Assembly: GCA_964541945.1 (NCBI GenBank) | Contig: CAZISE010000016.1 | Coordinates: 20,484 to 84,483, forward strand | DNA length: 64,000 nt | Reading direction: 5' to 3' | From: an uncultured Verrucomicrobiota bacterium | GTDB taxonomy: Bacteria > Verrucomicrobiota > Verrucomicrobiia > Palsa-1439 | Part shown: in pieces, positions 24,843 through 45,959 of the stretch | How positions within the stretch are numbered: the first letter of the stretch is position 1 | Layout: each line of letters begins with the position of its first letter | Notes under the pieces: generated by a model | Told to the model about the DNA's origin: nothing | Databases searched by the model: none | The model's input: the letters and a program-made list of their open reading frames with translations, nothing else | Program-made: the position numbers and the translations under genes

Positions 24843-25420
24843 GCGCGGCGAGTATAGGGGGTGGAGGAAAATTTTTCCAGTGGCAATGACACGTGAAAAT
24901 AGCTGCTTTTGGGTGGTTGTTCGGCTTTCGCCGCTTGTTTTCGTTTCTTCCCAATCGCTCGTCCGTTGGTTTCGTACCACCCCGGCAGATGTGGCCCATA
25001 GTGCACGCGCCAGCCAACGTCCGTCCCAATGTTCGCAGACTTTGACGCGGCTTTTGGCAAAACTCCACCGCGCGCTCTGCGGCGCAATCGGTAGCCACAC
25101 GCGCCGCCATCGTGTGTTCGTGTTGGATACAGAAAAACGGCGTCCCGATCCAGATGCGCCGCACGGACAAAGGCGTCGCCCGGCTGCGTCGGTGTTTCGG
25201 CCCAGTGCCGCCGATGCCACGGCAAAAACACGTCGCCGATGTAGCGGGGTTGGCTGTCGTCCACGTAGAGCATCCTCCCGCGCAACGGATCGGTGAAATG
25301 CGTAACGTTGAAGCCCTGGTGTGGTTCGCAGTAAAGCCACAAGACTTGTTCTGCGCTGGCCAGCAGCAACTTCTTGAGGCTCACATCCTCAACCTGCCCA
25401 GTGGACGTTTCACCTGTCAT
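24839..25420 (-). CDS. hypothetical protein, translationally coupled to the GT2 gene
   Basis: 193-aa ORF with an ATG start. Its TGA overlaps the GT2 ATG (ATGA at 24839-24842). No family recognised. Confidence 0.5.
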   Translation of the reverse strand: MTGETSTGQVEDVSLKKLLLASAEQVLWLYCEPHQGFNVTHFTDPLRGRMLYVDDSQPRYIGDVFLPWHRRHWAETPTQPGDAFVRAAHLDRDAVFLYPTRTHDGGACGYRLRRRARGGVLPKAASKSANIGTDVGWRVHYGPHLPGWYETNGRAIGKKRKQAAKAEQPPKSSYFHVSLPLEKFSSTPYTRRA

Positions 25421-25475
25421 TTCCAGCGGTCATATCACTTGTTATCAACACATCCGAAAAGGGATATTGCCAATC

Positions 25476-25503
25476 CGTCACGGGTTCGTTACACCTTTGT
25501 GAC
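25476..25503 (+). promoter_or_regulatory. candidate Pho-box-like hexamer array upstream of the DUF47-PiT genes (weak)
   Basis: CGTCAC (25476), CGTTAC (25487) and TGTGAC (25498) are phased at exactly 11 bp. The array abuts the RBS (25504-25510), which is atypically close to the start codon. Confidence 0.3.
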
Positions 25504-25516
25504 AAGGAGAAGCGTT

Positions 25517-26143
25517 ATGCTGAGAGCCTTGATTCCACAAGAGTTCGATTTTTTTACTTGTTTCGAGAGGGTAGCCGAGAAGGCGGTGGGGGCGGCGAAG
25601 TTGTTGCAGAAGATGACCGAAAACTACGGCGACGCCGATCCGTTGGCGCGAGAGATTGAATCGGTGGAGCACTGTTGTGATGACATCACTCACGAGGCGC
25701 TGGATCGGCTGAACAAGGTGTTTATCACGCCGCTGGACCGCGAGGACATTCACACGATCATCATTCGCATGGACGATGTGGTGGACCTGATTCATGCCTC
25801 ATCGAGTCGGATGGCGTTTCTGGCCATTGAGAAGCCGACGACTCACTCGGTCAACATGGCCAAACAAATCGTTCGCGGCTGTGAGAAGATGGCCGAGGCG
25901 GTTCACGGGTTGCGCTCGACCAAGAACTACAACCAGGTCACTCAGGATTGTATTGCCATCCACGAGGTGGAAAATGCCGCCGACGATATTTTGCACTATG
26001 CGCTGGCGGAACTGTTTACGACGGTCAAGGACCCCATCACCGTGATCAAGTGGAAAGACATTTACGAGAGCATGGAGAATGTAACCGACCGCTTGGAGGC
26101 GGTGGCCAACGCCCTGCATGGAGTCATCGTCAAGATGAGCTGA
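25517..26143 (+). CDS. DUF47 / PhoU-divergent family protein (Pit accessory protein)
   Basis: AAGGAGA RBS, ATG 25517. Blocks E...D.I.HE....L...FITP.DREDI and VKWKDIYE..E...D match the DUF47 family, which is usually paired with PiT. Confidence 0.85.
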   Translation: MLRALIPQEFDFFTCFERVAEKAVGAAKLLQKMTENYGDADPLAREIESVEHCCDDITHEALDRLNKVFITPLDREDIHTIIIRMDDVVDLIHASSSRMAFLAIEKPTTHSVNMAKQIVRGCEKMAEAVHGLRSTKNYNQVTQDCIAIHEVENAADDILHYALAELFTTVKDPITVIKWKDIYESMENVTDRLEAVANALHGVIVKMS

Positions 26144-26144
26144 C

Positions 26145-27194
26145 ATGGACGCTTTTCTTCGCGACATCGGTAGCATCGTTCACCACCCGTATGTGGCCCT
26201 GATTTTTTTTGCCGCGCTGGCGTTTGATTTCATCAACGGGTTTCATGACGCGGCCAACTCCATCGCCACCATTGTTGGCACGCGGGTGCTACGGCCATTC
26301 CCTGCGGTTTGTTGGGCGGCATGGTGGAACTTCGCTGCAGCGTGGTTTTTTGGCGTCCACGTCGCCAATGCGGTGGCCAAATGGGTTCATGTAGAGTACG
26401 TGACCATTGACGTGATTTTGGCCGGATTGATCGGCGCGATTGTCTGGAACCTGATCACCTGGCGCGGTGGATTGCCGTCCAGTTCTTCCCACGCATTGCT
26501 GGGCGGATTTGGCGGGGCAGCCATTGCTCATGCCGGCCAAGCGCACGGGGTGTTGTACACAGCAAAGGTGGTGGCCACCGTGGAGTGGATTGTTCTGGCT
26601 CCGATGCTCGGCATGGTATTGGGATTGTTGTTTATCACCATCGTAATGTGGGCATTTCGCAAGACATCCATGATCAAGGTGGATCGTTGGTTCCGCGTGG
26701 CTCAGCTTGGCAGTGCGGCGGCCTATTCCCTTGGCCACGGCACCAATGACGCGCAAAAAACCATGGGCATTATTGCGGCGCTTTTGTATGCAACCATCTG
26801 GAGCAAGGACCAGGAAGCTTTTGCCAGTGGCAAGGTGGAGTTTCCATTCTGGATTGTGCTGGTCTGCCATGCAGCCATTGGATTGGGCACGATGGCGGGC
26901 GGGTGGCGTATCGTCAAAACCATGGGTATGCGCATCACCAAGCTGCGCCCCTATGATGGCGCTTGCGCGGAAGTGGCCGCGGCCACTTCGTTGTTCACCT
27001 CGGCGTCTCTCGGTATCCCGGTCAGTACCACCCACACCATTACCGGAGCCATTGTGGGGGTTGGCTCGGTGTATCGGCTCTCTGCAGTCCGCTGGGGTGT
27101 GGCGCGGCAAGTGGTGTGGGCATGGATTTTGACGATTCCCTGCTCGGCTCTCGTGGCGGCCATTTCTTACTATGTTATTCTGTTCTTTCGGTAG
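26145..27194 (+). CDS. pitA: inorganic phosphate transporter, PiT family
   Basis: FINGFHDAANSIAT near the N-terminus and the repeated GTNDAQKTMGII block. Multi-pass membrane protein. Confidence 0.9.
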   Translation: MDAFLRDIGSIVHHPYVALIFFAALAFDFINGFHDAANSIATIVGTRVLRPFPAVCWAAWWNFAAAWFFGVHVANAVAKWVHVEYVTIDVILAGLIGAIVWNLITWRGGLPSSSSHALLGGFGGAAIAHAGQAHGVLYTAKVVATVEWIVLAPMLGMVLGLLFITIVMWAFRKTSMIKVDRWFRVAQLGSAAAYSLGHGTNDAQKTMGIIAALLYATIWSKDQEAFASGKVEFPFWIVLVCHAAIGLGTMAGGWRIVKTMGMRITKLRPYDGACAEVAAATSLFTSASLGIPVSTTHTITGAIVGVGSVYRLSAVRWGVARQVVWAWILTIPCSALVAAISYYVILFFR

Positions 27195-28980
27195 CCAACG
27201 GCACTGTAAAATAAAAACGGCTTCCTTCGCCTACCCGGCTTTCGGCCCAGACGCGGCCGCCGTGCGTCTGGACGATGTGTTTGACGATGGATAATCCAAG
27301 ACCCGTTCCTCCCAGTTCCCGGCTTCGCGCTTTGTCCACACGGTAAAACCGCTCGAAGATGCGCGGCAGATGTTCCGCGGCGATGCCGGGGCCGTTGTCG
27401 GCCACGCAACACTCGATCTCGTTGCCATTTTGTCGGGCACAGATGGTAATGCGACCACCGGTTGGGGTGTACTTGATGGCGTTGTCAAGAAGGTTGACGA
27501 ACACCTGGTGCAATCGCCGCCGGTCGCCCCGAACCATCGGCAGGGCGTCCGGAAATTCCAGCGTAATGTCCATGGATTTCTCACGGGCCTGTTTGGCTAG
27601 TTCCTCCGCCACCGACCGGGCCACGTCGCACAGGGAGAGCGTTTCCAGTTCCAACCGGGCTTGTTGCGATTCCAGCGCGGAAATGTTGAGGAGGTCTTCG
27701 ATGAGGTTTTCCAGGCGCTGCGAGTGTTTTCGGATGATTTCCAGAAACTGTCGGGTAAGCGACGGATCGGGTGGCGGCTCTTCAAGCAATGTTTCCACAT
27801 AGCCCTTGATGATGGATAGCGGCGTGCGCAATTCGTGGCTGACGTTGGCGACGAATTCCTTGCGAACATTTTCCAGTTGTTTCAGGCGGGTAATGTCGTG
27901 AAACACCATCACCACGCCCGCGTGGTTGGGGAGCGACGCGGCATTGACGGCAAACACCCGTTCCGACGGGGTCAGAAACGCCAGCTCGCACGCGGTCGGC
28001 GTGGTCACCAGTTTTTCCAGTTCCACATTGCGAAAAACCTCCAAAACCGTCTTGCCGATCGTTTCGTCACCAAGCTGAAACTGCTGGCGCAACGCCCGAT
28101 TGATCAACCGAATCCGTCCCTGATCATCCGCCACCAGTACCCCCTCGGTCATCCCCGCCAGAACGGCCGAGAGTTCCGCCTTTTCCTTGTCCAACTCCCG
28201 CAACCGGGCGGCAAGCTGGGAGGCCATCTCATTCAATGCGCCCGCCAGTTCGCCCAACTCACCGCCGATGTCTCGCGGAGCCGTGCGACTGAAATCACCG
28301 CCCGCCACCCGCACGGCCATCTGCCGCATCGTTTCAATCGGACGACTCCATCGCCGCGCCAACAGAAACAGCATCGGCACCGATAAACACCATACCATCA
28401 GCCCGGCCACAGCCACGATCCAGAAAACCCGTTGCGCGATGGCCTCGACCGTTTGCAGCGACAACGCCACACGCACCACGCCCACGATGCGGTCGTCGCC
28501 CCCCAAGACTGGCTGTGCCACATACAACAACGCCTGACCGGTCGTGCTGCTGCGACGTTGATCCGCGCCAACTCCTTTTGTCAGCGCCCCCACAACCTCC
28601 GGTCGGTAACGATGATTCTCGATGGACACCAACAGTTCCGGCGGCTTGTCCGATTCGCCCACCACCGTGCCGTCCGCCGTCATGATGGTCACGCGCAATC
28701 CCGTCTCCTTTCCCAACGTTTGCGCCATCTGGTTGATCTCCTGAACCGGCACGGGGGAAGTCACCAACAACGGCGCCGCAAAATGTCGCACCACCCGACC
28801 ATTGCGCTCCAAATCCTTTTGCAGGGTGCCGACAATATAGGGACGGAGAAAATGCTCGCTGCCCAGAATGACCACGCCCAACAACGCCGCCAACAACCCG
28901 GTCAGACCGAAAAACCAGCGCCATTGCAATGAAAACCGAAACGCCATCAACGCGAAGGATAACCGACACCCCGCCGACAC
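27175..28980 (-). CDS. phoR: phosphate-regulon sensor histidine kinase (PhoR-like: TM-HAMP-PAS-HisKA-HATPase)
   Basis: FVANVSHELRTPL H-box, N-box NLLDNAIKYT, G-boxes DNGPGI / GGTGLGLSIV, and an upstream HAMP-like segment. GTG 28980 is preceded by GGAAGG. Its 3' end overlaps pitA by 20 nt (convergent). Confidence 0.85.
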   Translation of the reverse strand: MSAGCRLSFALMAFRFSLQWRWFFGLTGLLAALLGVVILGSEHFLRPYIVGTLQKDLERNGRVVRHFAAPLLVTSPVPVQEINQMAQTLGKETGLRVTIMTADGTVVGESDKPPELLVSIENHRYRPEVVGALTKGVGADQRRSSTTGQALLYVAQPVLGGDDRIVGVVRVALSLQTVEAIAQRVFWIVAVAGLMVWCLSVPMLFLLARRWSRPIETMRQMAVRVAGGDFSRTAPRDIGGELGELAGALNEMASQLAARLRELDKEKAELSAVLAGMTEGVLVADDQGRIRLINRALRQQFQLGDETIGKTVLEVFRNVELEKLVTTPTACELAFLTPSERVFAVNAASLPNHAGVVMVFHDITRLKQLENVRKEFVANVSHELRTPLSIIKGYVETLLEEPPPDPSLTRQFLEIIRKHSQRLENLIEDLLNISALESQQARLELETLSLCDVARSVAEELAKQAREKSMDITLEFPDALPMVRGDRRRLHQVFVNLLDNAIKYTPTGGRITICARQNGNEIECCVADNGPGIAAEHLPRIFERFYRVDKARSRELGGTGLGLSIVKHIVQTHGGRVWAESRVGEGSRFYFTVPLATERTE

Positions 28981-29020: not shown

Positions 29021-29803
29021 TCAGCCATACCGGCCCTCGATGTAGTCGGCCGTGCGCGGGTCTTTCGGGGTCAGAAACAGATCGGTGGTCCGGGCGTGCT
29101 CGATCACCTCGCCGAGCAGCATGAAGAAACATTCATCACTCACCCGACGGGCCTGCGCCATGTTGTGGGTGACGATGACAATCGTGTAGTGCCCCGCCAA
29201 CTCGCGCATCAACTCCTCGATGCCGAGCGTGCCGGCGGTGTCCAGCGCGCTGCACGGCTCGTCCATCAGAATGATCTGCGGTTTGAGCGGCAACAAGCGC
29301 GCAATGCAGAGTTTTTGTTGCTGTTCCAGTTGCAGGCCGGTCGCCCGATGATGTAGCCGGTCTTTCAGGTCGTCCCACAACAGCACCTCGCGCAACGCCT
29401 TTTCCACGGCATCGTCCAACTCGGACTTCCGCAGGGCGCGTCGCTCGCTGTGAATGCGCAGGCCGAACACGACGTTCTCGTAGATTGAGATCGGCAATGG
29501 ATTGGGTCGTTGGAAAACCATGCCGACATGTTTGCGCAACTCGATCAGCGACACATCGGGAGCAAAAATGTTCTGACCGAGCACCGTGATCTCGCCGGTG
29601 GTGGTGACATAGCCAAAGCGCTCGTTGATACGGTTGAAACAGCGCAACAACGTCGTTTTGCCGCAGCCACTCGGCCCGATCAACGCGGTAATCTTACCGT
29701 GCGGAATGTTGACCGTGACGTTCTTCAGCGCCTGAAACTTCGCGTACCAGAGGTTCAGGTCGCGTGTCGTGATGCTGTAACCGTTGGCAGGCGTAAGGCT
29801 CAT
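29021..29803 (-). CDS. pstB: phosphate ABC transporter ATP-binding protein PstB (canonical motifs)
   Basis: Walker A GPSGCGKTT, Q-loop VGMVFQRPNP.P.SIYENV, Walker [13 protein letters not shown]-loop IVTHNM. Confidence 0.9.
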   Translation of the reverse strand: MSLTPANGYSITTRDLNLWYAKFQALKNVTVNIPHGKITALIGPSGCGKTTLLRCFNRINERFGYVTTTGEITVLGQNIFAPDVSLIELRKHVGMVFQRPNPLPISIYENVVFGLRIHSERRALRKSELDDAVEKALREVLLWDDLKDRLHHRATGLQLEQQQKLCIARLLPLKPQIILMDEPCSALDTAGTLGIEELMRELAGHYTIVIVTHNMAQARRVSDECFFMLLGEVIEHARTTDLFLTPKDPRTADYIEGRYG

Positions 29804-30570
29804 CCGAACACTCCGTGGGTGTAATCGTAGGTCCGCCGGTCGCGCGGGGTTTCGGAAAAGATTTTCTCCGTGGCGTCCAACTCAACCAGTTCGCCATTGA
29901 ACAGAAACGCCGTCCGGTCGGCCAAGCGACGGGCTTGCTGCACCAGGTTGGTCACCAGCAGGATCGTCATCCGGGCGCGGAGTTCTTTTAGCACGTCTTC
30001 AATCCGCATCGTGGTGACCGGGTCAATCGCGATGGAAAACTCGTCGAGACAGAGAATCTCCGGGTCATGTGAGAGCGCGCGGGCAATGGTGAGCCGTTGT
30101 TGTTGGCCGCCGGAGAGCTTCGTGCCGAGTGTGTGCAACCGGTCTTTCACTTCGTCCCAGAGCGCGGCCTGCCGCAGACAACGCTCGACACGCTGTTCGA
30201 GTTCGGCCCGGTCGGTGATGCCAGCCATGCGCGGGGCAAAAGCGACGTTGTCGAAAATCGTCAACGGCAACCCGACCGGCAACGGCGCGACCATGCCGAC
30301 GCGCCGGCGCAGGTCATAAACGTTGTTGCTCTGGCGGATGTCTTCGTTGTCCACCTTGATCACGCCAGTCACGCGAGCGTGCCGTTCGTGGTCAAGCGTG
30401 CGGTTGAGGCAACGCAACAGCGTGGTTTTGCCGGACTGGGCCGGGCCGATGATGGCCAGAATCTCGTTGCGTTGGACGGTGAACGACACCCCTCGCAAGG
30501 CAGCTTTCGCGCCATAGTGAACGGTCAGGTTTTCGATCTCGATGTGGGGAGCGGAAATCATTGTCACCAT
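29800..30570 (-). CDS. PstB-like ATP-binding protein with degenerate Q-loop and H-loop
   Basis: Walker A GPAQSGKTT and signature LSGGQQQR are present. The Q-loop position reads VGMVAPLP (no Gln), Walker B reads LCLDEFSIAID, and the H-loop reads LLVTNLVQQ (His to Asn). Start ATG 30570 overlaps the pstA stop; its own stop overlaps the next pstB start (29800-29803). Confidence 0.8.
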   Translation of the reverse strand: MVTMISAPHIEIENLTVHYGAKAALRGVSFTVQRNEILAIIGPAQSGKTTLLRCLNRTLDHERHARVTGVIKVDNEDIRQSNNVYDLRRRVGMVAPLPVGLPLTIFDNVAFAPRMAGITDRAELEQRVERCLRQAALWDEVKDRLHTLGTKLSGGQQQRLTIARALSHDPEILCLDEFSIAIDPVTTMRIEDVLKELRARMTILLVTNLVQQARRLADRTAFLFNGELVELDATEKIFSETPRDRRTYDYTHGVFG

Positions 30571-31469
30571 TTCTTCCGGGAACGGAGCCAGACACGAAGA
30601 ATGATGGCCAGCGCGTTGATGCACAGCACCGTGCCGAGCAGGACAACCGCCGTGGCGAACGGCAGTGCGTGCGGCACGTCCGGCACCTGCGTCGAAATGG
30701 TGAACAGGTGCATCGAAAGCGCCATGCACTGGTCGCGCAGGCCGTAGGCGAACGGGTTCCCCTCCTCGATGGCCTTGAAGAAAACCGCCCCGGTAAACAT
30801 GATCGGCGCGGTCTCGCCCGCCGCGCGCGACACCTGTAGGATCACGCCGGTCAGAATGCCGCTAATCGAGTTCGGCAACACGACATGCCGGATCGTCTGC
30901 CACCGGGTCGCGCCGACGTTCCAGCAGGCTTCGCGGAACGACTGCGGTACGGCAGCCAACGCTTCTTTCGTGCTGGCGATGATGACCGGCATCGTCATGA
31001 TCGCCAGTGTCAGCGACGCCGCGAGGATGGATTTGCCCAGCCCGAAGAAAATGACAAACGCACCCAACCCGAACAGCGCGTGCACGATGCTCGGCACGGC
31101 GGCGAGATTGATGACGGCGAGGTTAACAAGGCGCGTGAACCAGTTGTCCCTGGCGTACTCATTGAGATAGACCGCCGCCAGCACGCCGATGGGCGCGGCC
31201 ACCAGCAGCGAGAATCCAACCAGATAAAACGTGCCGAGCAATGCCGACCAGATGCCGCCCGCTCGCATCCCGCGTTTCGGGTTGGTGGTCAGAAACTCCC
31301 ACGACAACACCGGCCATGCCTGCACGACCAGATACACCACAATCAACACCAGCGGCACAACCAGCAACAACGCCATCGTGAAGAACACCGCGCGCGCCAG
31401 TTGTTCGTGACGCTGTTTCTTTCGCGTCAACGGTGTCGCGGCAAAGATGTGTGGGGCGGGCGCGTTCAT
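30564..31469 (-). CDS. pstA: phosphate ABC transporter permease PstA
   Basis: Start reset to ATG 31469 (MNAPAPH...), in ATGA overlap with the pstC stop. Six-helix permease with the EAA-like loop (TKEALAAVPQSFREACWNVGATRWQTI). Confidence 0.9.
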   Translation of the reverse strand: MNAPAPHIFAATPLTRKKQRHEQLARAVFFTMALLLVVPLVLIVVYLVVQAWPVLSWEFLTTNPKRGMRAGGIWSALLGTFYLVGFSLLVAAPIGVLAAVYLNEYARDNWFTRLVNLAVINLAAVPSIVHALFGLGAFVIFFGLGKSILAASLTLAIMTMPVIIASTKEALAAVPQSFREACWNVGATRWQTIRHVVLPNSISGILTGVILQVSRAAGETAPIMFTGAVFFKAIEEGNPFAYGLRDQCMALSMHLFTISTQVPDVPHALPFATAVVLLGTVLCINALAIILRVWLRSRKKW

Positions 31470-32359
31470 TTCTTCCGCACCCCCCGGATGATCAGGTCGG
31501 CGGTCAGGTTCACAGCGGTCGTGATGAGGAACAACAAAATGCCAATGACGAACAACACCCGGTAATGATCCGAATGCACCGGTGCTTCGCCGAGTTCGGC
31601 GGCAATGGTGGCGGTCAACGTGCGGACCGGGTCGAGCAGGCTGGTCGGGATGTTGATGGCGTGACCGGTGGCCATGAGCACGGCCATCGTTTCGCCAACC
31701 GCGCGCGCAACGCCGAGCAACCCCGCCGCAAGCAGGCCGTTTTTGGCAGCCGGCAACAGCACCCGGTAAATCAACTGCCACCGGGTCGCACCGAGCGCCA
31801 GCGCCGCTTCGCGGTAAGAATCCGGCACCGCTTTCAGCGCGTCTTCGCCAATGGAGACGATGATCGGGACGCTCATCAGAGCGAGGATGACACCGCCGTT
31901 GAGCACGTTCAGGCCAATGGGCGCGTCAAACAACCAGATAATCAGCGGATTGAGCACAGTCAACCCGATGAACCCCCATACCACTGACGGAATCGCCGCG
32001 AGTAGTTCGATGACGATCTTGAGTGTTTCCTTCAGTTTTGGCCCGCAAAACTCCGACACAAAAATGGCCGCGCCAATGCCGAACGGGACGGCGATGACCA
32101 TTGCCAGCGCGGTGACGCTGAAGGTGCCGGCCACCAGTGCCAGCGTGCCGTAACGGACATGGCTGGGCGAACTCGGATACCATTCGGGACTGAAGAAAAA
32201 CTCACCGAACTTGAAGTGCTTGAACAACACCGCGCCACCCTCGCGGAACACAAAGAAGAAAATGCTGAACACAAACAAAATCGCGCTGACGCCACAAAGA
32301 CGGATCACCGACTCGATGAGCCATTCCAGAATAATTTCTCGCTGGCCGCGTTTTGTCAT
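31466..32359 (-). CDS. pstC: phosphate ABC transporter permease PstC
   Basis: Start reset to ATG 32359, in ATGA overlap with the pstS stop. Contains GEDALKAVPDSYREAALALGATRWQ. Confidence 0.9.
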   Translation of the reverse strand: MTKRGQREIILEWLIESVIRLCGVSAILFVFSIFFFVFREGGAVLFKHFKFGEFFFSPEWYPSSPSHVRYGTLALVAGTFSVTALAMVIAVPFGIGAAIFVSEFCGPKLKETLKIVIELLAAIPSVVWGFIGLTVLNPLIIWLFDAPIGLNVLNGGVILALMSVPIIVSIGEDALKAVPDSYREAALALGATRWQLIYRVLLPAAKNGLLAAGLLGVARAVGETMAVLMATGHAINIPTSLLDPVRTLTATIAAELGEAPVHSDHYRVLFVIGILLFLITTAVNLTADLIIRGVRKK

Positions 32360-33291
32360 GCGTCCAATCGGGGTCGTCGTTCGGGCGGCACGGGCACGTA
32401 GCCGCATTGGGCCAGTCGTTGCTGGCCGGCATCGGAATAAATCCAGCGCAGATATTGCCGGACGTGGCCGGTTGGCTCGCCGAGCGTGTACATCAACAGC
32501 GGACGAGCAATCGGATACGAACCGTTGAGCGTGCTCTCGGCGCACGGCAGGACGGACGGCGCGCCCGGTTGCTTGGCGACACGCAACATTTTGACCCGCG
32601 GCGTGGCGTAGCCCATGCCACTGTAGCCAATCGCGCCCGGCGTTCGCTCGATGAGTTCCACGACTTCCTTCGAGCCGTGCAGGTCAAGCGAGCCGAGACG
32701 GAAATCGGCTTTCTTGCCGAGAATGGCTTCGCGGAAAAAATGATACGTGCCGGAATTGGACTGGCGGCTGACACGGATGATCTTGTCGCCCCCCTTGCCG
32801 GGCAGTTGAACACCGAGATCGGACCAGCGGGTGTAGCGGCCTTTTTCGGCATAGATTTCGGCGATCTGACCGATGGTGATTTCCTCCAGCGGATTGGCGC
32901 GGTTGACAAAAATCGCCAGCGCGTCGTAGCCGACCACAAACTCGACCGGTTCCTTGCCGGTGTTTTGCTTGGCGCGGGCGGCTTCTTCGGGCGTGACGTG
33001 CCGGCTGGAGTTGGCGATGTCCACCGTGCCGGCGATCAACGCGGCGATACCGGTGCCCGAACCGCCGCCGGACACTTCGACGGAGACGGTCGGTTCGACC
33101 TCGGCATATTCCTCCGCCCAGGCCTGGGCGACGTTGACAAGGGTGTCCGAGCCGGCATTCTGGATGACGGCTTTTTTGTGGCCGTTTGTCGTGGATTTGT
33201 TTCCGCCACAACCCGGCCCGGCCAGCAGCAGCCCCACCGCGAGCAGGCTCGCGGCCACAAGGGAAGGTGTTGCCGCGGGCCGCCGCATCAC
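32356..33291 (-). CDS. pstS: phosphate-binding protein PstS (lipoprotein-type signal)
   Basis: Signal with a Cys (LLLAGPGCGG), GSDTL.NVAQAWAE.Y, VSGGGSGTGIAAL..G..DIANSSR. Confidence 0.85.
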   Translation of the reverse strand: MMRRPAATPSLVAASLLAVGLLLAGPGCGGNKSTTNGHKKAVIQNAGSDTLVNVAQAWAEEYAEVEPTVSVEVSGGGSGTGIAALIAGTVDIANSSRHVTPEEAARAKQNTGKEPVEFVVGYDALAIFVNRANPLEEITIGQIAEIYAEKGRYTRWSDLGVQLPGKGGDKIIRVSRQSNSGTYHFFREAILGKKADFRLGSLDLHGSKEVVELIERTPGAIGYSGMGYATPRVKMLRVAKQPGAPSVLPCAESTLNGSYPIARPLLMYTLGEPTGHVRQYLRWIYSDAGQQRLAQCGYVPVPPERRPRLDA

Positions 33292-34406
33292 TGCACCTCG
33301 TCGCGCTCTCCCAGGATGGCCTGGGTCAGGTGGCGAATGTGGGTTTGAAGAAAGTCAAACGCCGTTTCGTAGGCAGCGCGCACGGTTTCGGCGTCGCCGG
33401 TGACCTTCGCCGGGTCCACCACGTGCCATTCGAGGCCGACGGTTTTGGTAGGGGCGGAAGGGAAAAGTTTGCGCGCTTCGCGGCAGAGGCCAATGACCAC
33501 CTGTGCCTGATCCAGGTCGCCGATTTCGTCCACCGACCGCGGCGTGTGTCCGGAGACATCCATCCCTTTGGAACGCATGAATTCAATCATTTGCGGGTTG
33601 AGCTGGCCGGCCACCAATCCGGCGCTGGTAAAGCGGAAGCGTTCCTGACCCAGGGAGCGGGCAATCGCCTCGGCCATGACGCTGAGGCAGGTGTTGCTTT
33701 CACCAATGAAAACGACGTGAAACGACTCCATGGGCCGATGTTTCTGATATTCGCCGGTGGCGTAGTACAGCGCTTCTTCGCAGATGTTGTAGGCCTGGTC
33801 GGCAGCGCGCTCAAAACGACGGGCCACCGCCAGCAGTGGCGCCAGCTCGGTCAATGTGGGGGAGACAGGCCCCAACAGGCGGGTCAACTCCTGATTGATC
33901 TGGTTTCGCAGGGCATCGGCCTGATCCTCGCCGACCATGGTGGCGCGGGCCAGGTCGGCGTCTTTTTCCAGAAAGGCGCGGACGGCATTGCGCACCATGG
34001 GGATGACCAGATTGGCCATTTGTTCGAATTTGTCGCGGGGAATCCCCTGGGGCAGGGTATTGAGTTGCAAAGCCTGACGCGCCACGCTTTCGGCGTAATC
34101 GCCGATGCGTTCGAGTTCCTTGATGATTTTGCTGGTCGAATAGACGAATCGTAAGATGCCGGCGGCGGGCTGGTAGCGGACCAGAAATTCCAGGCAGAGA
34201 CGGTCGAGTTCGGTTTCCAACTCGTCCACGCGACGGTCGCGCAGGATGACGGTGTAAGCCAGTTGCCGGTCGAGGGAGAGGACGGCCTGCAACGAGCTGC
34301 GCAGAGCCTGCTCGTCGAGTTCTTCCATGGCCTGCAATTTGGCGCGGATGGCGGCCAGGTCGTGTTCAAGGCTGGCTTCCAAATGAAGTGGCTGTGGGGT
34401 ATTCAC
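33288..34406 (-). CDS. PhoU domain fused to an LMW-phosphatase/ArsC-like domain with a degenerate P-loop
   Basis: The N-terminal ~215 aa have two PhoU repeats (..KELERIGDYAESVA.. and ..RRFERAADQAYNICE..). The C-terminal ~150 aa align to LMWP/ArsC (VVFIGESNTCLSVMAEA, SAG, WHVVDP). The nucleophile Cys and the Arg of CX5R are replaced (G...L). GTG 34406 has AAGGA upstream. Its stop overlaps the pstS start (ATGA 33288-33291). Confidence 0.8.
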   Translation of the reverse strand: MNTPQPLHLEASLEHDLAAIRAKLQAMEELDEQALRSSLQAVLSLDRQLAYTVILRDRRVDELETELDRLCLEFLVRYQPAAGILRFVYSTSKIIKELERIGDYAESVARQALQLNTLPQGIPRDKFEQMANLVIPMVRNAVRAFLEKDADLARATMVGEDQADALRNQINQELTRLLGPVSPTLTELAPLLAVARRFERAADQAYNICEEALYYATGEYQKHRPMESFHVVFIGESNTCLSVMAEAIARSLGQERFRFTSAGLVAGQLNPQMIEFMRSKGMDVSGHTPRSVDEIGDLDQAQVVIGLCREARKLFPSAPTKTVGLEWHVVDPAKVTGDAETVRAAYETAFDFLQTHIRHLTQAILGERDEVQ

Positions 34407-34484
34407 GGCGAATATCCTTAGGGGAAGTCAGGTGGAGGCGACAAGCAGATTTCAAAGAAATGTGACCGGAACGGGATGCGGTGA

Positions 34485-35165
34485 TCACGGAAGATCGGCG
34501 AAACGATAGCCGACACCGCGAACGGTCTCGATCAGTTCGCCGGCTTTGCCGAGTTTCTCGCGCAGCCGGCGAACGTGTGTGTCCACGGTGCGCGTGTCAA
34601 TGTCGCCTTCGTATCCCCACACGTCGGACAACAGGGTGTCGCGGGTTTGGACCCGTCCGCGGCGTTGCATCAAGGTGGAAAGGAGCTTGAATTCCGTGGC
34701 TGTCAGCTCGACCGGCTTGTTTTTGATGCTGGTCTGATGTTTGCCAATGTCCACCAGCAGATCACCGCACTTGAGGATTTCCGCCACCGCCGGGCTGGCG
34801 CGTCCGAGGAGTTTTTTCACACGCAACACCAGTTCGCGCGGGCTGAATGGTTTGGTCACATAATCGTCGGCGCCAAGTTCGAGGCCCAACACGCGGTCCA
34901 CTTCCTCGGCTTTGGCTGTCAACATCACAATCGGAATGTGCGCGGTCCTGGGATCGGCCTTGAGACGTTTGCAAACCTCGGTCCCATCCATTTCCGGCAA
35001 CATCAAATCAAGCACCAGCGCCGCCGGCAACAGATCGCGGGCTTTCGCCAGCCCGCTCAGGCCGTCGCGCGCCGTGGCGGTGTGATACCCGGCCTTGCGC
35101 AGGTGAAACACGACCAGGTCCAGCACATCGGATTCGTCTTCGACGATGAGAATGGTCTCTGACAT
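34485..35165 (-). CDS. phoB: phosphate regulon response regulator (OmpR/PhoB family)
   Basis: ILIVEDE, LDLMLPEMDG, ADDYVTKPF, and a winged-helix tail (VWGY...DTRTVDTHVRRLREKLG). Start reset to ATG 35165. Confidence 0.9.
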   Translation of the reverse strand: MSETILIVEDESDVLDLVVFHLRKAGYHTATARDGLSGLAKARDLLPAALVLDLMLPEMDGTEVCKRLKADPRTAHIPIVMLTAKAEEVDRVLGLELGADDYVTKPFSPRELVLRVKKLLGRASPAVAEILKCGDLLVDIGKHQTSIKNKPVELTATEFKLLSTLMQRRGRVQTRDTLLSDVWGYEGDIDTRTVDTHVRRLREKLGKAGELIETVRGVGYRFADLP

Positions 35166-35175
35166 GGCTTGTATT

Positions 35176-35838
35176 TTACTCGGTTCGGTGGCGGATGTCT
35201 CGCGCTTCGTAAAGATAAACCACTTCTTCGGCAATGTTGGTGGCGTGGTCGGCGATGCGTTCGAGGTTGTGCGAGACGCTCATCAGGCTCAGGGCGCGAG
35301 TGATGGTTTGCGGGGCTTCGATCATGAAACTGGTCAGCTCGCGATGGAGTTGACGATTGAGCGCGTCCACTTCTTCGTCGCGGCGAATGACCTCGCGGGC
35401 CAGGTCGGATTTGCCGTACACGAAGGCATCCAGCGCGTCGTTGACCATGCCGCGGGCCAGGTCGGCCATGCGCGGGATGTCAATCAACGGTTTCAGTTGC
35501 GGTTCGGCGTTCAATTCCCTGGCGCGATGGGCGATGTTGACGGCCTGATCGCCGATGCGCTCCAACTCGGCGGCGATTTTCATGGACATCAGGATGAATC
35601 GAAGGTCTTTCGCGGCGGGCTGGCGCAGGGCAAGCAGTTTGACCACCCGGTCGTCAATCTCCATTTCCAAATGATCAATCGGCTCGTCGGCGGCATCCGC
35701 TTTGTCCGCCAGCGCGTTGTCCCGTTGGACCAACGCCTTCAATGCCTCCGCCACGCTCTGTTCGGCCAGGGCCGACATGCGCAACAACGCCTGCTTCAGT
35801 TCTTCCAGTTCCAGGTCAAAATGTCGTTCCATGATCAA
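35176..35838 (-). CDS. phoU: phosphate signalling complex protein PhoU
   Basis: 220 aa with two PhoU repeats ([15 protein letters not shown]; [16 protein letters not shown]). The start overlaps the pstB stop (ATGA 35835-35838). Confidence 0.9.
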
Positions 35839-37110: not shown

Positions 37111-38775
37111 TCAGAACTGGGCGCCCACGTAGCGTTTTTTCAGCCGGTTACGAATGTAAATGGCGCTGAGATTCAACAGCGCAATCAGCAAAATCAACAG
37201 CAGCGTCGTCGTAAACACCATCGGCTTGGCCGCCTCGCTGTTGGGCGATTGGAACCCGACATCGTAGATGTGGAAGCCGAGGTGCATAAAGCTGCGGTTC
37301 AGATGCAGGAACGGGAAATGACCGTCCACCGGCAGTTCCGGCGCGAGTTTGACCACGCCGGTAATCATCAACGGCGCCACCTCGCCGGCGCCACGAGCCA
37401 TGGCCAGGATCAAGCCGGTCATCACACCGGGCATGGCGCGCGGCAACACGATGCGCTTGATCGTCTGCCATTTACTGGCGCCGCAGGCGTAACTGCCTTC
37501 GCGCATGGAACTCGGCACGGCGGCCAGCGCTTCTTCCGTCGCCACGATCACCACCGGCACGGTCAACAACGCCAGCGTCAGCGATGCCCAGATAATACCG
37601 CCGGTGCCGTAGGTCGGCGACGGCAGGCGTTCGGGAAAAAACAGCGCGTCCATCGTGCCGCCAACCACGTAGCAGAAGAAACCGAGGCCGAACACGCCAA
37701 AGACGATGCTCGGCACGCCGGCGAGGTTGTTGACGGCGATGCGGACGGCGCTGAGCAACGGTCCTTGTTTGGCGTATTCGCGCAAATAGAGCGCGGCGAT
37801 CACGCCGAACGGCGCGACCGAAAACGACATGATCAGGGTCATCATCACCGTTCCGAAAATGGCCGGCAACACGCCACCCTCGGTGTTGGCTTCGCGCGGT
37901 TCGCTGGTCAGAAACTCCCGCCACCGGCTCAGGTACACCCCGGCGCGCTGGAGAAAATTGAGATCGTTGGCGGGATAGGCGCGGACGATCTCGGAAAACT
38001 TCAACTCTTTCGTCCGCCCGCCGACTTCCCGCACTTCGACGGTGTAACGGGCGTCCTCAGCGCGGATGGCAGCCACTTTCGCGCCGAGCTTGTCGTATTC
38101 CGCGCGCAACGCTTCCTCGCGCTGTTTCGCCTCGACCACGGCGCGGGTATATTCGGGAGAGTCTTTACCGTGTTTGAGTTCGACCTTGCGAACGGTGAGT
38201 CGCAACTGTTCGAGGGTGCGGTTGACCTCGCCGATTTCCGTTTTCTCGATGCGTTTGATCCGACGGAACCGGTCACGTGCCGGCTCGTGCAGTTGGGCAA
38301 ACGAGTTCGTCGTGGGTCTGCCGTCCACGCGGATTTCTTTGATGAAGCCGACGAACACACCCCATTCCTGCCGCTCAAACAGCCAGGCGCCGGTCGGGGT
38401 TTCGCGCCGGGCAATGTCGTGGTCGTTGATCCATTTGAAGTGGTCGCCGTAGAGGTCAAAGTTGCCGGTGCGCAACAGGCGACGGCGGGCGACACGGCCT
38501 TCGCGCTGGAAGGCCTCGGTGCGGGCAATTTCTCCGAGAAACGTCTGACCATCGCGTGTGGTGATCTTGACGATCCGTTTCGGCCAGAAGGTGAGCGTAC
38601 CCTTCACCACCACCAACAACAGCAGCCCGGCAATCATTAACGTCGCCACGGCCAGCCCGCCGCCGGTCAGCCAGATCATGGGTTCGCCACGCGCTCGCCG
38701 GGAGGTGCGCCGTTCGCGGCGCATCTTGGCCGGCGGGGACGGGTTGGTAAAGATGCCGCGAATCGCGAGGCTCAT
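37111..38775 (-). CDS. pstA: long-form phosphate ABC transporter permease PstA (554 aa)
   Basis: The C-terminal ~280 aa are a PstA permease core (NNLAGVPSIVFGVFGLG, TEEALAAVPSSMREGSYACGASKWQTI). The N-terminal ~270 aa are one TM helix plus a soluble coiled-coil-rich insertion. ATG 38775 chosen (GGAGG 8 nt upstream). Confidence 0.85.
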   Translation of the reverse strand: MSLAIRGIFTNPSPPAKMRRERRTSRRARGEPMIWLTGGGLAVATLMIAGLLLLVVVKGTLTFWPKRIVKITTRDGQTFLGEIARTEAFQREGRVARRRLLRTGNFDLYGDHFKWINDHDIARRETPTGAWLFERQEWGVFVGFIKEIRVDGRPTTNSFAQLHEPARDRFRRIKRIEKTEIGEVNRTLEQLRLTVRKVELKHGKDSPEYTRAVVEAKQREEALRAEYDKLGAKVAAIRAEDARYTVEVREVGGRTKELKFSEIVRAYPANDLNFLQRAGVYLSRWREFLTSEPREANTEGGVLPAIFGTVMMTLIMSFSVAPFGVIAALYLREYAKQGPLLSAVRIAVNNLAGVPSIVFGVFGLGFFCYVVGGTMDALFFPERLPSPTYGTGGIIWASLTLALLTVPVVIVATEEALAAVPSSMREGSYACGASKWQTIKRIVLPRAMPGVMTGLILAMARGAGEVAPLMITGVVKLAPELPVDGHFPFLHLNRSFMHLGFHIYDVGFQSPNSEAAKPMVFTTTLLLILLIALLNLSAIYIRNRLKKRYVGAQF

Positions 38776-38785
38776 ACAAACGGCC

Positions 38786-38930
38786 TCCAAATCCGAATGC
38801 CGAAGCGCAAACCACGAAACAAATCCGAATGCCCAAAATCCCAAGTCCCAAACAACCGCACCGCCGCCCCGTTTCGGCATTCGAATTTCGCGCTTGTTTC
38901 GCGCTTCGGATTTCGTGCTGCGAATTTCAT
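38786..38930. repeat. repeat-rich intercistronic element between long pstC and long pstA
   Basis: Direct copies of AAATCCGAATGCC at 38789-38801 and 38821-38833. Inverted copies at GGCATTCGAATTT (38876-38888), CTTCGGATTT (38904-38913) and GCGAATTT (38920-38927). CCGAAGCGC (38800-38808) is complementary to GCGCTTCGG (38901-38909). Together these can form a long imperfect hairpin around a C-rich ~40-nt loop. Confidence 0.6.
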
Positions 38931-41242
38931 AACTGGAATGCCCTCTTGCGGAACCGCTGTCGGATCACCTCGGCTGCGGTGTTGAGAAGGAAGGTCATCA
39001 CAAACAACGTCAGCGCCGCCAGAAACAGCATCCGATACAGCGTGCTGTCTTTCACGGCCTCCGGCAGTTCGACGGCGATGTTGGCCGAGAGTGCCCGCAG
39101 GCCGTTAAAAATGTTCCAGTCCATCAGTGGCGTGTTGCCGGCGGCCATGACGACAATCATCGTTTCGCCAACCGCCCGCCCCAGGCCGATCATGCACGCG
39201 GAAAAGATACCGGACATTGCCACCGGCACGATCACGCGGATGGCTGTCTGCCACGGCGTGGCACCACAGGCAAGCGAGGCCGACCGCAAATGCTCCGGCA
39301 CGCTGGACAGGGCATCCTCGGAAATCGTGTAGATGATCGGGATGACCGCAAACCCCATCACGAAACCGACCACGAGCGTGTTGCGTTGCACATAAGGACC
39401 GATGCGGGCGTTGAGCCATGCTTTGAAATCGCCGGCAAACAGGACCGTTTCAACCGGCCCGCTCAACACGACGGCCAGCCAGACCGCGACCGGTGCAAGC
39501 GCCAACACCAGGAGGAACTGCGCCCCGCCGGGCACACGCGCCCGCCAGCGGGCCGGCAACCATTGCCACGAAAAACCGCCCGCCAACAACACGCACGGGA
39601 GAAACGCGAACGTCAACAGCACCGCCACGATCCAGTTTTCCACCACCGGGGCGAGCACCAGCGCGGCAATGAATCCGAGCACGACGCTCGGCAGTGAGGC
39701 CATCGTTTCGATGGCGGATTTGATCGGCGCCCGTAGGCGCGGGTCAAGGAATTGCGACGTGTAAATCGCTCCGAGCAACGCGATCGGCACGGCGAACAGC
39801 ATCGAGTAAATCGTCGCTTTCAACGTGCCGAACACGAGCGGCACGAGCGAGAATTTCGGCTCAAAATCGTCGTTGGCCGACGACGATTGCCAGGTGTAGT
39901 CCGGGTGGTCATAGCCTTCGTACCAGACCTTGCCGAAGATCGTGCCCCATGTCGTTTCCGGGTGCGGATTGCGAACGTTCCAGCGATACGCTCGCCCGTC
40001 CGCATCGAGCGCAAACAGGCCGTCGCCCTTGGGCGTGAGATGAACCGCCACGACCCGGTCGGACGCGACCGTCGGGCGCGCCGGGGTTGTTTCTCCTTCA
40101 CGGACGCCCCGTCGGTTTGTTGTCACCTTTCCCAACACCTGCCGGCTGGTCATGTGGCGCAACCAAATTTCGCCGTTGACGGCACCGGTCACGAGGCATT
40201 TGTCGCGGGTGGACATGTCGGCGGCGCTGACGGCGGCGGTGTGCGCATCGAGTTTGTGTGCCGCAACCAGACGATAGCCGTCGGCCGTGCCCGATTCGGG
40301 ACGATGGACGCGGAACCAGGCGGTCACGCCGCCGTGGGAATCGCCGGCAATCACGGATTGATCGCCGAACATGAACTGAAGCCGGGTCAGTTCGATGCCG
40401 GGCGTTGGCGTGAAATCGGCGGTCTCGGCAATGACCGGCGCGGCGATGTCGCGCAGGTCGTAGCGTTGCACGGTGCCGTCGCGCCAAGCGAGATAAACCT
40501 GGTCGCCCTGTGTGTTTTGTAGAAGGTAATCGGGCAGATCGGCTCGTCCGGCAGGCGGACGGTAGGGCAGGTCGTGTTTGGTGAGTTTGGTGGTGATTTT
40601 GCCGGTGAGGATGTTTTCGCGATGGGTAACCTCGTCCCAAAAGAGTTCGCCATTGGCCTTGAGTACAGTGAGCACCGAACGATTGTCGCTGGGTTTGTAA
40701 TCGAGCCGGTGAACGGCCACGCCCGGTTTGCCGACCAACAGCGGGTCTTCAAGCGCGGCTTCCACGCCGTCGGCGGTGAACCGCAGGCGGCCAAGTCGGA
40801 CGGTGCCGTCGGCGAATCCGAGCGCGATGTGACCGCCGCGCAAGGTGCGGGCAAACGCCGTGATGCCGGTGGCGAGGAGTTGTTCGGAGACAATTTTGCC
40901 GGTGGGCGCGTCAAAAACGGTGAGTCGGCCCTGTCGGTCAAGGACGAATCCGTGTTGTTGATGTTCATCGAGCTGAACGGCCCAAAGTTGGTTGGCCCGG
41001 TCGGGGTCGAGCAGCCGGTAGCTGCCGGCGGCGGTAATTTGGGCCCCGCGAAAGAGCGGGACGACAACCGAGACGAGATAGACGAGGATGCCAATGACCG
41101 CCACGATGACCATAATGCCGCCGGTGGTGATGCCCCAAGTGGTCAGTTTGTCCACAACGCGGACGGCCCGGCTGGTTTGCCGGGCGCGCGGGCGGGCCAT
41201 CGGCGCGGCGGGCGGCGGGGTTGTTTCAGTGGCGGCTGGCAT
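38927..41242 (-). CDS. pstC: long-form phosphate ABC transporter permease PstC (771 aa) with a large N-terminal repeat-containing extracytoplasmic domain
   Basis: The C-terminal ~300 aa are a PstC core (ISEDALSSVPEHLRSASLACGATPWQTAI). After one TM helix (WGITTGGIMVIVAVIGILVYLV) come ~430 aa with recurring beta-propeller-like blades (GFADGTVRLGRL, WRDGTVQRYDL, GDSHGGVTAWFRV, GAVNGEIWLRHM, LDADGRAYRWNV). Confidence 0.85.
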   Translation of the reverse strand: MPAATETTPPPAAPMARPRARQTSRAVRVVDKLTTWGITTGGIMVIVAVIGILVYLVSVVVPLFRGAQITAAGSYRLLDPDRANQLWAVQLDEHQQHGFVLDRQGRLTVFDAPTGKIVSEQLLATGITAFARTLRGGHIALGFADGTVRLGRLRFTADGVEAALEDPLLVGKPGVAVHRLDYKPSDNRSVLTVLKANGELFWDEVTHRENILTGKITTKLTKHDLPYRPPAGRADLPDYLLQNTQGDQVYLAWRDGTVQRYDLRDIAAPVIAETADFTPTPGIELTRLQFMFGDQSVIAGDSHGGVTAWFRVHRPESGTADGYRLVAAHKLDAHTAAVSAADMSTRDKCLVTGAVNGEIWLRHMTSRQVLGKVTTNRRGVREGETTPARPTVASDRVVAVHLTPKGDGLFALDADGRAYRWNVRNPHPETTWGTIFGKVWYEGYDHPDYTWQSSSANDDFEPKFSLVPLVFGTLKATIYSMLFAVPIALLGAIYTSQFLDPRLRAPIKSAIETMASLPSVVLGFIAALVLAPVVENWIVAVLLTFAFLPCVLLAGGFSWQWLPARWRARVPGGAQFLLVLALAPVAVWLAVVLSGPVETVLFAGDFKAWLNARIGPYVQRNTLVVGFVMGFAVIPIIYTISEDALSSVPEHLRSASLACGATPWQTAIRVIVPVAMSGIFSACMIGLGRAVGETMIVVMAAGNTPLMDWNIFNGLRALSANIAVELPEAVKDSTLYRMLFLAALTLFVMTFLLNTAAEVIRQRFRKRAFQL

Positions 41243-44077: not shown

Positions 44078-44686
44078 TTACCGCGCAGGAACCGTCTTGT
44101 CGTTGAGAAGATCGAATTCGACCGGGCAGGCAAACACCGCCTCAAACAGGCCGCGCTTGCGGGAGGCGCCCTCGATGTGCAGCCCGGCCTCAGCGGTGGC
44201 GCGGACACGAATAAGGACGTGCCGGTCGGTGATTTGGCAGGCAATCGCGCTCACCCATTGCAGGTGTGGCCGGTCCAGGCCGTCGGCCAGGCGCAACAAC
44301 GCCGCCAGCTTCTGAATGCGACGCCGGGTTGGTTCGGGCTGAGCGGCGAAATCCTCGTGTTCGACGGATGGCTCGGATTTGCGATGATACCGCGCCACGA
44401 GCGCGAGTTGTTCGATTTCTGACGGGTTGAAACCGGGCAGTTTGGCGGCGTTGAGACGGATCAGGTCGGCGCTGTGTTTGTGGTGTTTCTTGCCGGTGAC
44501 AGTCCAACCGATATCGTGAAGCAGGGCGGCGGCTTCGAGGAGGTCGCGCTCGGGGGCGCCAAGCTGATGGAGCGGCTGAAGCTGGTCGAACAACGCGAGC
44601 GCCAGGTCGCGCACTTTGCGGGCGTGTTCGATTTCCCAGCCGTAGGCCGCCAGCAATTGTTCGGCTGCCGCAATGCGCGGGTTCAT
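44078..44686 (-). CDS. stand-alone HD-domain protein resembling the C-terminal half of Ppx/GppA
   Basis: LLHDIGW......HHKHS..LI and LALVARYHRK....D plus LLRLADGLD, which is the HD region pattern of Ppx/GppA phosphatases. There is no N-terminal actin-like domain. The start overlaps the ROK stop (ATGA 44683-44686). Confidence 0.7.
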   Translation of the reverse strand: MNPRIAAAEQLLAAYGWEIEHARKVRDLALALFDQLQPLHQLGAPERDLLEAAALLHDIGWTVTGKKHHKHSADLIRLNAAKLPGFNPSEIEQLALVARYHRKSEPSVEHEDFAAQPEPTRRRIQKLAALLRLADGLDRPHLQWVSAIACQITDRHVLIRVRATAEAGLHIEGASRKRGLFEAVFACPVEFDLLNDKTVPAR

Positions 44687-45672: not shown

Positions 45673-45959
45673 TGTTCCACGGTTTCGGTGAGCCGTTTGA
45701 TGAGTTTGTCGAGCGCTTTTAGGTCGCGCCGTCGTCCTTTGTGCGGTTTGAGGTCGAGTTTGTTGATCCAGTCGGACATCCGCCGCAACTCGGCCATTCG
45801 TCGGGGACTTGGTTCGACATCAGCCAGAGCGCGGTCCACGCGGGCGATGTCGGCCTGCAGGCCGGCGAGGTAGTTGCCGCCGACTTCCTTGACGAGGAGG
45901 CGCAGGGTTTGCAGGGAAGCGGAAAGTCGGCGCTGGCGGTTGTGGAATCGGGCGTTCAT
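45666..45959 (-). CDS. 97-aa basic, helical hypothetical protein
   Basis: ORF locked into the operon by overlaps at both ends (ATGA 45956-45959; ATGGTGA at 45666-45672). No family recognised. Confidence 0.5.
   Translation of the reverse strand: MNARFHNRQRRLSASLQTLRLLVKEVGGNYLAGLQADIARVDRALADVEPSPRRMAELRRMSDWINKLDLKPHKGRRRDLKALDKLIKRLTETVEQW

Follow-up and report, generated by a model that had tools for sequence, protein, structure and literature searches.

In a 64,000-nt stretch of DNA from an uncultured Verrucomicrobiota bacterium (GenBank assembly GCA_964541945.1, contig CAZISE010000016.1; the whole stretch is called the window, and positions are those of the window), the minus-strand gene at 33288..34406 encodes a PhoU protein joined to a domain of arsenate reductase (ArsC) fold that has lost its catalytic residues. 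The gene heads a phosphate transport cassette, Pst2, whose two ATPase subunits are unequal. Our preferred reading, which we hold tentatively, is that the fusion is a dedicated non-catalytic regulatory subunit of an asymmetric Pst2 importer, and that its dead ArsC half would be a P-loop-centered binding module, likely an anion reader.

The phoU-pseudoArsC fusion gene is an uninterrupted open reading frame (ORF) of 372 aa with a GTG start and an AAGGA Shine-Dalgarno-like site upstream of it. Residues 1-222 (33741..34406, minus strand) make up the PhoU half, with six helices and two PhoU repeats as judged by Pfam, NCBIfam and Foldseek. Pfam matched PhoU (PF01895) in two stretches (E 1.3e-36), and the NCBIfam model phoU_full (TIGR02135) scored 155.3 bits over residues 13-219 against a cut-off of 130.25. 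Both of the acidic, metal-binding E-R-x-x-D motifs of PhoU are retained (E99..D103 and E199..D203), and E99, R100, G102, D103, E199, R200 and D203 are invariant across 70 homologues. An AlphaFold2 model built from 70 homologues reached a mean predicted local distance difference test score (pLDDT) of 90.3; its PhoU half consists of six helices and was matched by Foldseek to Aquifex PhoU 1t72 with a template modeling (TM) score of 0.93. The second domain, residues 229-365 (33312..33722, minus strand), has the fold shared by ArsC and the low-molecular-weight (LMW) phosphatases, as indicated by Pfam, phmmer against the PDB, and Foldseek. LMWPc (PF01451) matched residues 231-347 with an E value of 6.4e-12 and 46.3 bits (gathering score 23.2), the C half of the model matched Bacillus subtilis ArsC 1jl3 with a TM score of 0.88, and the domain has both the SAG (261-263) and the WHVVDP (327-332) blocks. 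Its closest NCBIfam equivalog, arsC_pI258_fam, scored 71.4 bits, far below the cut-off of 174.3. Foldseek returned no PDB entry spanning both halves. An earlier note, made from the letters and translations of this DNA, had described a two-repeat PhoU followed by an LMW protein tyrosine phosphatase (PTP) or ArsC fold with these two blocks, and the Pfam, NCBIfam and structural matches agree with it on both domains.

The remodelled P-loop, F-I-G235-E-S-N-T-C240-L241-S, lies at 33681..33710 (minus strand) and was located by phmmer and MAFFT alignments. In the phmmer search against the PDB, VVFIGESNTCLSVMAEA of the fusion aligned without gaps to VMFVCKRNSCRSQMAEG of Synechocystis ArsC (2l17). The P-loop alignment to B. 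subtilis ArsC 1jl3 was also free of gaps, and a MAFFT alignment with pI258 ArsC agrees on the equivalences of the catalytic positions. By these alignments Gly235 stands in place of the nucleophile Cys10 of ArsC, Leu241 in place of Arg16 (the CX5R Arg), and Phe315 in place of Cys89, while Cys308 corresponds to Cys82 and Asp331-Pro332 to Asp105-Pro of the general-acid loop. The sole Cys of the P-loop, Cys240, is equivalent to Cys15 of pI258 ArsC, the non-essential second P-loop Cys. Thus there is neither a C-X5-R P-loop (Gly235, Leu241) nor a Cys82-Cys89 disulfide relay, in which Cys308 is present and position 315 is Phe. An alternative alignment that restores the P-loop Cys and Arg is ruled out, as Pfam, NCBIfam, PDB phmmer and MAFFT are concordant and the loop is ungapped. 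Both substitutions had been read off in the earlier note, which called for alignment to family hidden Markov models, and they hold against the Pfam and NCBIfam models. Its expectation that the protein performs no phosphatase or reductase chemistry also stands, given the lost catalytic residues and the score of 71 bits against 174. Because the protein departs from both the catalytic features and the curated cut-off despite its ArsC/LMW-phosphatase fold, it should be classed neither with the arsenate reductases nor with the phosphatases.

The fusion is widespread. An identical protein occurs on two contigs, and 1,114 protein clusters match it at E<=1e-5, the best 120 of which all contain PhoU plus LMWPc and measure about 365-390 aa. 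Scanning GTDB with one genome for each species gave 50 fusion-bearing loci from Verrucomicrobiota, the Vicinamibacterales and Bryobacteraceae of the Acidobacteriota, Myxococcota, Fibrobacterota, KSB1, Calditrichota, Raymondbacteria and Planctomycetota, the best match among them being from Verrucomicrobiota (78%). Current source annotations of these proteins read only 'PhoU' or 'phosphate transport system protein', and in the literature searched we found no description of a PhoU-LMWP/ArsC fusion. We treat the 120 closest of the 1,114 clusters as the near family. Position 235 in these is Asp in 102 clusters, Gly in 18 and Cys in none, so that the survey proposed in the earlier note finds both a broad distribution and, in the near family, a uniform absence of the nucleophile Cys. 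Leu occupies position 241 in 107 clusters, with Thr, Val and Met among the others; the combination of Gly235 and Leu241 is found in this protein and its 17 closest clusters. Cys240 is present in 120/120 and Cys308 in 74/120, with Ser at the latter position in 29/120. Asn238, Ser242 and Asp331-Pro332 are nearly invariant (Asp331 in 115/120), and a 14-residue window over the P-loop is the most conserved of the 124 windows in the C half. The two halves show similar identity to close homologues (e.g. 85.6 and 88.7%; 81.1 and 74.3%). Collectively these comparisons indicate that the ArsC-fold domain is maintained by purifying selection and that its P-loop region matters; by sequence it is a pseudoenzyme, in which the fold of an enzyme is kept under selection and the catalytic residues are lost.

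For a wider view the ArsC-fold domain alone was run in an exhaustive HMMER search against 1.84 billion representatives, which gave 2,707 hits at E<=1e-3; the 46 PhoU-bearing representatives (50% clustering) among the best 150 of these hits form the wider family. Here position 235 is Asp in 33, Ser in 7, Cys in 3, Gly in 2 and Tyr in 1, and position 241 is Leu in 22, Arg in 12 and another residue in the remainder. The unfused relatives among the same best 150 hits have Cys at 235 in 63/79 and Arg at 241 in 72/79. Cys240 is found in 24/46 and Cys308 in 3/46 of the PhoU-bearing representatives. As far as these alignments go, there is no single conserved ligand-binding signature in the fusion family. 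We also discarded Cys240 as a universal functional residue, since it is invariant in the near family only and is missing from a Limisphaera isolate, from Planctomycetota members and from many representatives. This isolate, Limisphaera sp. VF-2 (L040 7953-9083), places the family in a cultured organism; its P-loop reads D-G-D-H-G-L-R-S, with the Arg retained and the nucleophile Cys and second Cys both lost, which illustrates the variability of the pocket. A separate large subfamily (P0271-P0305, e.g. L083 8001-9101) has the motif FVDE[HR]DACRGQMA, with Asp at the nucleophile position, the Arg kept and Gly replacing the P-loop Ser. At the one locus of this subfamily that was examined, P0271 in L083, the fusion heads a pstS-C-A-B-B cassette.

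All genes of the Pst2 cassette lie on the minus strand behind the fusion. The gene for the periplasmic phosphate-binding protein, pstS2 (32356..33291; TIGR02136, 222 bits against a cut-off of 207), overlaps the fusion stop codon with its start (GTGA, or TGATG if the ATG is used), and the two genes are translationally coupled. The permease genes pstC2 (31466..32545) and pstA2 (30564..31781) follow, both given as maximal ORFs whose true starts are probably later, and then the ATPase genes pstB-a (29800..30729) and pstB-b (29021..29803). Directly after the cassette comes a PhoR/PnpS-type histidine kinase (27175..28980) with Cache-like, HAMP, PAS, HisKA and HATPase domains. Because PstS2, PstC2 and PstA2 pass phosphate-specific models, phosphate is the likely substrate of Pst2. 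The earlier note had correctly put the fusion at the head of a pst operon and in overlap with pstS, although it gave the overlap as ATGA; it had also taken the downstream genes for an ordinary pstSCAB operon, and this part does not stand, as there are two PstB proteins with complementary degeneration. PstB-a has an intact LSGGQ signature and has lost the Q-loop Gln (GMVAPL) and the H-loop His, which is Asn (VTNL). PstB-b is canonical in Walker A, Walker B, Q-loop and H-loop and has a degenerate signature (LQLEQQQK vs LSGGQ). Both fall below the TIGR00972 cut-off of 343 bits, PstB-a with 285 and PstB-b with 328, and PstB1 of the window scores 396. Each ATP site in an ATP-binding cassette (ABC) dimer is built from the Walker, Q-loop and H-loop side of one subunit and the signature of the other. 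The complementary degeneration of PstB-a and PstB-b therefore predicts, from ABC architecture, a heterodimer with one consensus, working ATP site and one dead site.

This arrangement is conserved along with the fusion. The next gene after the fusion is pstS in 47/50 loci, and the Planctomycetota loci have the order pstS-fusion-pstC. Both PstB-a and PstB-b are encoded in 34/34 fusion loci with at least 5 kb of downstream sequence, and their complementary degeneration is conserved across phyla, with equivalent genes in L001-L052 (~40 loci). The fusion is thus linked obligatorily to an asymmetric cassette, fusion-pstS-pstC-pstA-pstB(a)-pstB(b). It has the sequence and the fold of a PhoU and departs from PhoU in gene order, being the first gene of its pst operon, ahead of pstS, in 47/50 loci and not the last.

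Catalytically intact PhoU-ArsC fusions also exist, and the earlier note had overlooked both these and the two-PstB nature of the downstream operon. P0257 (L081 2977-4077) lies directly after a single pstB, and P0309 (L082 7427-8527) stands at the end of a normal pstS-C-A-B operon that encodes one PstB and is complete on the L082 contig. Both thus occupy the usual position of phoU. They share with the fusion the order of PhoU then ArsC, a length of about 366 aa and a position adjoining pst genes. They differ from it in keeping the catalytic residues (Cys10, Arg16, Cys82, Cys89 and Asp105) and in having a single canonical pstB upstream, the PstB that precedes each of them carrying all canonical motifs. 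Both are rare, each cluster being one sequence. Their ArsC halves share ~50% identity with free-standing ArsC and, in a neighbor-joining tree, are nested within these proteins. In the neighbor-joining tree of PhoU halves, the dead fusions are gathered in a single clade separate from unfused PhoU, and P0257 and P0309 fall on the unfused side; the P0309 half is closest to unfused PhoU, and that of P0257 is about equally close to the fused family and to unfused PhoU. These trees, on 152 and 221 columns and without support values, are indicative only. The grouping of P0257 and P0309 apart from the dead clade suggests that PhoU and an ArsC-type domain were joined independently at least twice, and P0309 at least appears to be an independent fusion. 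The idea that the intact fusions are direct ancestors of the dead family is unsupported, as their ArsC halves group with free ArsC; for P0309 the PhoU half speaks against it too by grouping with unfused PhoU, and P0257, near the split, is ambiguous.

How could such a protein work? Passages of two papers describe PhoU as bridging PstSCAB and PhoR and contacting the PAS domain of PhoR (PMC9239213, PMC13577022), and in a passage of the former the way in which PhoU perceives phosphate status and relays it between Pst and PhoR is called still unresolved (PMC9239213). In the reading that we prefer, the importer would be composed of PstS2-PstC2-PstA2 and a PstB-a/PstB-b heterodimer in which one ATP site works and the other is dead. 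The PhoU half would bind the ATPase subunits, and probably the neighboring PhoR-type kinase as well, and would curb transport and signaling when phosphate is plentiful, as PhoU does elsewhere. The C half, which would descend from a thioredoxin-type arsenate reductase, would act as a non-catalytic binding module around the conserved, remodelled P-loop. Most likely it would read a cytoplasmic anion (phosphate, arsenate or a phosphorylated metabolite) and so tune the PhoU brake, which would amount to a trans-inhibition device supplied in trans. We infer the PstB and PhoR binding, the ligand binding and the direction of regulation.

The idea of a ligand-sensing pseudoenzyme, put forward in the earlier note, is supported in part. 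In favor of a binding pocket is the P-loop, as the best-conserved stretch of the domain in the near family; several observations weigh against an anion reader. The Arg that grips the oxyanion is absent from the P-loop (Leu241), and most relatives have at the nucleophile position an Asp, which is expected to repel anions. Across the wider family, side chains of the pocket (235, 240, 241, 308 and 331) differ between members, and most of the positions that do not vary belong to the core. Together, the loss of Arg, the Asp235 of relatives and the variable pocket argue against a uniform oxyanion pocket. Furthermore, the predicted TM score (pTM) of the model is just 0.64, which leaves the position of one half relative to the other undefined. 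A variable pocket around an invariant core is as compatible with a structural or docking function as with sensing, and it is possible, although we consider it somewhat unlikely, that the dead ArsC domain is only an extra protein-protein interface that binds no small molecule. Its partner might then be the asymmetric PstB-a/PstB-b dimer (e.g. on the side of the degenerate site) or the PhoR-type kinase, or the domain might mediate dimerization. Such a role would be in keeping with the lost anion-binding Arg, with the strict co-occurrence of the fusion with two PstB (34/34 loci) and with the single canonical PstB that accompanies the intact fusions. Against it, the best-conserved stretch in the near family is the P-loop and no surface patch, and Asn238, Ser242 and Asp331-Pro332, which shape the pocket of active enzymes, are kept.

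The cysteines raise another explanation, namely that Cys240 and Cys308 form a reversible disulfide or bind arsenite (As(III)), thereby coupling Pst2 activity to oxidative or arsenic stress. In pI258 ArsC chemistry the loop that carries Cys82 comes up to the P-loop and a disulfide is made between them, and LMW-PTPs have a protective disulfide that involves the second Cys of the P-loop; the frequencies of Cys240 (all 120) and Cys308 (74) among close homologues would suit a switch of this type. We regard it as improbable, since Cys308 is replaced by Ser in a sizable share of these same homologues (29/120), the wider family retains Cys240 in about half of its members and Cys308 in just three, and the Limisphaera isolate and Planctomycetota members do without Cys240 altogether. 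Residual enzyme activity by an unconventional mechanism, either hydrolysis of a phospho-substrate or reduction of arsenate, e.g. with an Asp nucleophile in the D235 subfamilies, is very improbable. The general acid (Asp331-Pro332), Asn238 and Ser242 are retained, some subfamilies combine Arg241 with Asp235 (the FVDE[HR]DACRGQMA motif), and a Cys-to-Asp mutant of PTP1B keeps weak activity. Nevertheless, this protein and its 17 closest clusters, with Gly235 and Leu241, have no nucleophile and no Arg, and the C half scores far under the ArsC equivalog cut-off (71 vs 174 bits). On these residues catalysis is implausible for the present Gly235/Leu241 protein and possible for the Asp235/Arg241 subfamilies. 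Lastly, a frameshift or assembly error, which the earlier note had itself considered, is ruled out by the continuous ORF, the identical protein on two contigs, the more than 1,000 matching clusters (all 120 listed having both Pfam domains) and the 50 genome loci across many phyla, and a functionless C-terminal relic is at odds with an ArsC-fold domain conserved as much as the PhoU half, so that we give this whole explanation a negligible probability.

The proposed non-catalytic regulatory subunit can be set beside known proteins. With canonical PhoU (Escherichia coli and Salmonella; 1t72 of Aquifex, 4q25 of Pseudomonas and 1sum of Thermotoga) it shares the two repeats and six-helix bundle, both E-R-x-x-D motifs, a score above the phoU_full cut-off and a location in a pst/phoBR cluster. 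Unlike canonical PhoU it has an extra C-terminal domain of 150 aa, is first and not last in its pst operon, is paired with two unequal PstB and has a PhoU half in a clade separate from unfused PhoU. With the thioredoxin/glutaredoxin-coupled ArsC proteins (pI258, 1jl3, 2l17) it shares the fold (TM 0.88) at ~28% identity, together with the SAG loop, the P-loop Asn and Ser, the second P-loop Cys, the equivalent of Cys82 and the Asp-Pro loop. In contrast to ArsC it has Gly for the nucleophile Cys, Leu for the CX5R Arg and Phe for Cys89, scores under the equivalog cut-off, is joined to PhoU and lies outside an ars operon. The closest concept for the dead domain is, by analogy, a pseudophosphatase of the STYX kind, here bacterial and mounted on a transporter regulator. 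STYX is a eukaryotic pseudophosphatase in which the catalytic Cys is Gly, the P-loop Arg is kept and phosphoproteins are bound; in other pseudophosphatases the nucleophile is replaced by Asp. The fusion resembles STYX in having a phosphatase fold under selection, a Gly for the nucleophile and, as proposed, a binding module rather than an enzyme, but it belongs to a different branch of the phosphatase superfamily and has lost the P-loop Arg as well. Type I ABC importers may carry trans-inhibition domains, such as the MetN C2 domain and the ModC C-terminal domain, that are cytoplasmic ligand-binding add-ons. The dead ArsC domain would likewise be a cytoplasmic add-on that could throttle an importer, its ligand binding being our proposal, but it sits on a separate PhoU-type subunit and not on the ATPase. 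Among ABC ATPases there are also heterodimers that pair a consensus nucleotide site with a degenerate one, and degenerate ATP sites are described in bacterial importers (PMC11466899). The literature searched yielded no description of a degenerate ATP site in Pst systems and nothing relevant on degenerate PstB heterodimers.

The fusion and Pst2 are part of a larger phosphate island. On the minus strand of the window the order is pstS1, pstC1 (long), pstA1 (long), pstB1, phoU and phoB, followed by the fusion, pstS2, pstC2, pstA2, pstB-a, pstB-b and the PhoR/PnpS-type kinase. A canonical phoU of 220 aa (35176..35838, minus strand; Pfam, NCBIfam) closes the pstS1-C1-A1-B1 operon. It ends 770 nt upstream of the fusion, as stated in the earlier note, which did not mention that a phoB-type response regulator gene (34485..35234, minus strand) lies between the two, immediately upstream of the fusion. 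In this genome the fusion is accordingly an addition to canonical PhoU, as had been proposed, and the presence of canonical PhoU alongside the fusion is established for three genomes, namely L001, L031 and the present one. Between phoB and the fusion lies a gap of 78 nt (34407-34484, minus strand) that contains no terminator-like site. It does contain a GGTCAC...TTGTCGC pattern, ~22 nt apart, of which a similar version occurs in L001; the pattern is too weak to claim a Pho box. Just beyond the kinase, at 25112-27194 on the plus strand, a DUF47 (PhoU_div) gene is followed by that of a PHO4/Pit-type phosphate transporter. The window thus encodes three PhoU-type proteins, one per adjacent transporter: DUF47 with Pit, canonical PhoU with Pst1, and the fusion with Pst2. 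There are no ars genes in the neighborhood, and we ruled out an arsenic-resistance context, the surroundings being a phosphate island.

Other features of the window are noted here in their own right. PstC1 (771 aa) and PstA1 (589 aa), encoded at 37111-41242 (minus strand), are far longer than usual, and their N-terminal extensions of several hundred residues each have no Pfam match. Beyond pstS1, a 202-aa ORF (44078-44686, minus strand) matches only domain III of Ppx/GppA plus the HD region and is without the N-terminal actin-like domains. Two adjoining, overlapping thymidylate-kinase-like genes (241 and 226 aa) lie at 45956-47343 on the minus strand.

A PhoU that carries a recognizable fold of the ligand-binding type offers a concrete, mutable handle on the perception of phosphate status, and the family that has it is abundant in poorly studied soil and freshwater phyla (Verrucomicrobiota, Acidobacteriota, Myxococcota and Planctomycetota). 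The PstB-a/PstB-b pair suggests that phosphate is imported by a type I ABC system in which one ATP site is degenerate, which would bear on models of the energetics and regulation of Pst. Arsenate enters cells through Pst, and this is plausibly why the activities of PhoU and ArsC meet physically; the repeated fusion of the two, active and dead, argues, as Rosetta-stone evidence, that phosphate uptake and the handling of arsenate are physically linked. A bolder view, which we consider doubtful, is that the fusion and its cassette constitute an unrecognized class of importer, an asymmetric Pst that has a catalytic ATP site and a degenerate, regulatory one and whose PhoU bears an ArsC-derived sensor of inorganic phosphate (Pi) or arsenate (As(V)) that shuts the pump and signals to PhoR. 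If this were true, phosphate inside the cell, or arsenate that enters through Pst, would be bound by the dead P-loop, which would allosterically close the pump; the Pho pathway would thereby have its first intracellular Pi/As(V)-sensing site that can be identified directly, and the rare intact PhoU-ArsC fusions would be devices that reduce arsenate at the mouth of the transporter.

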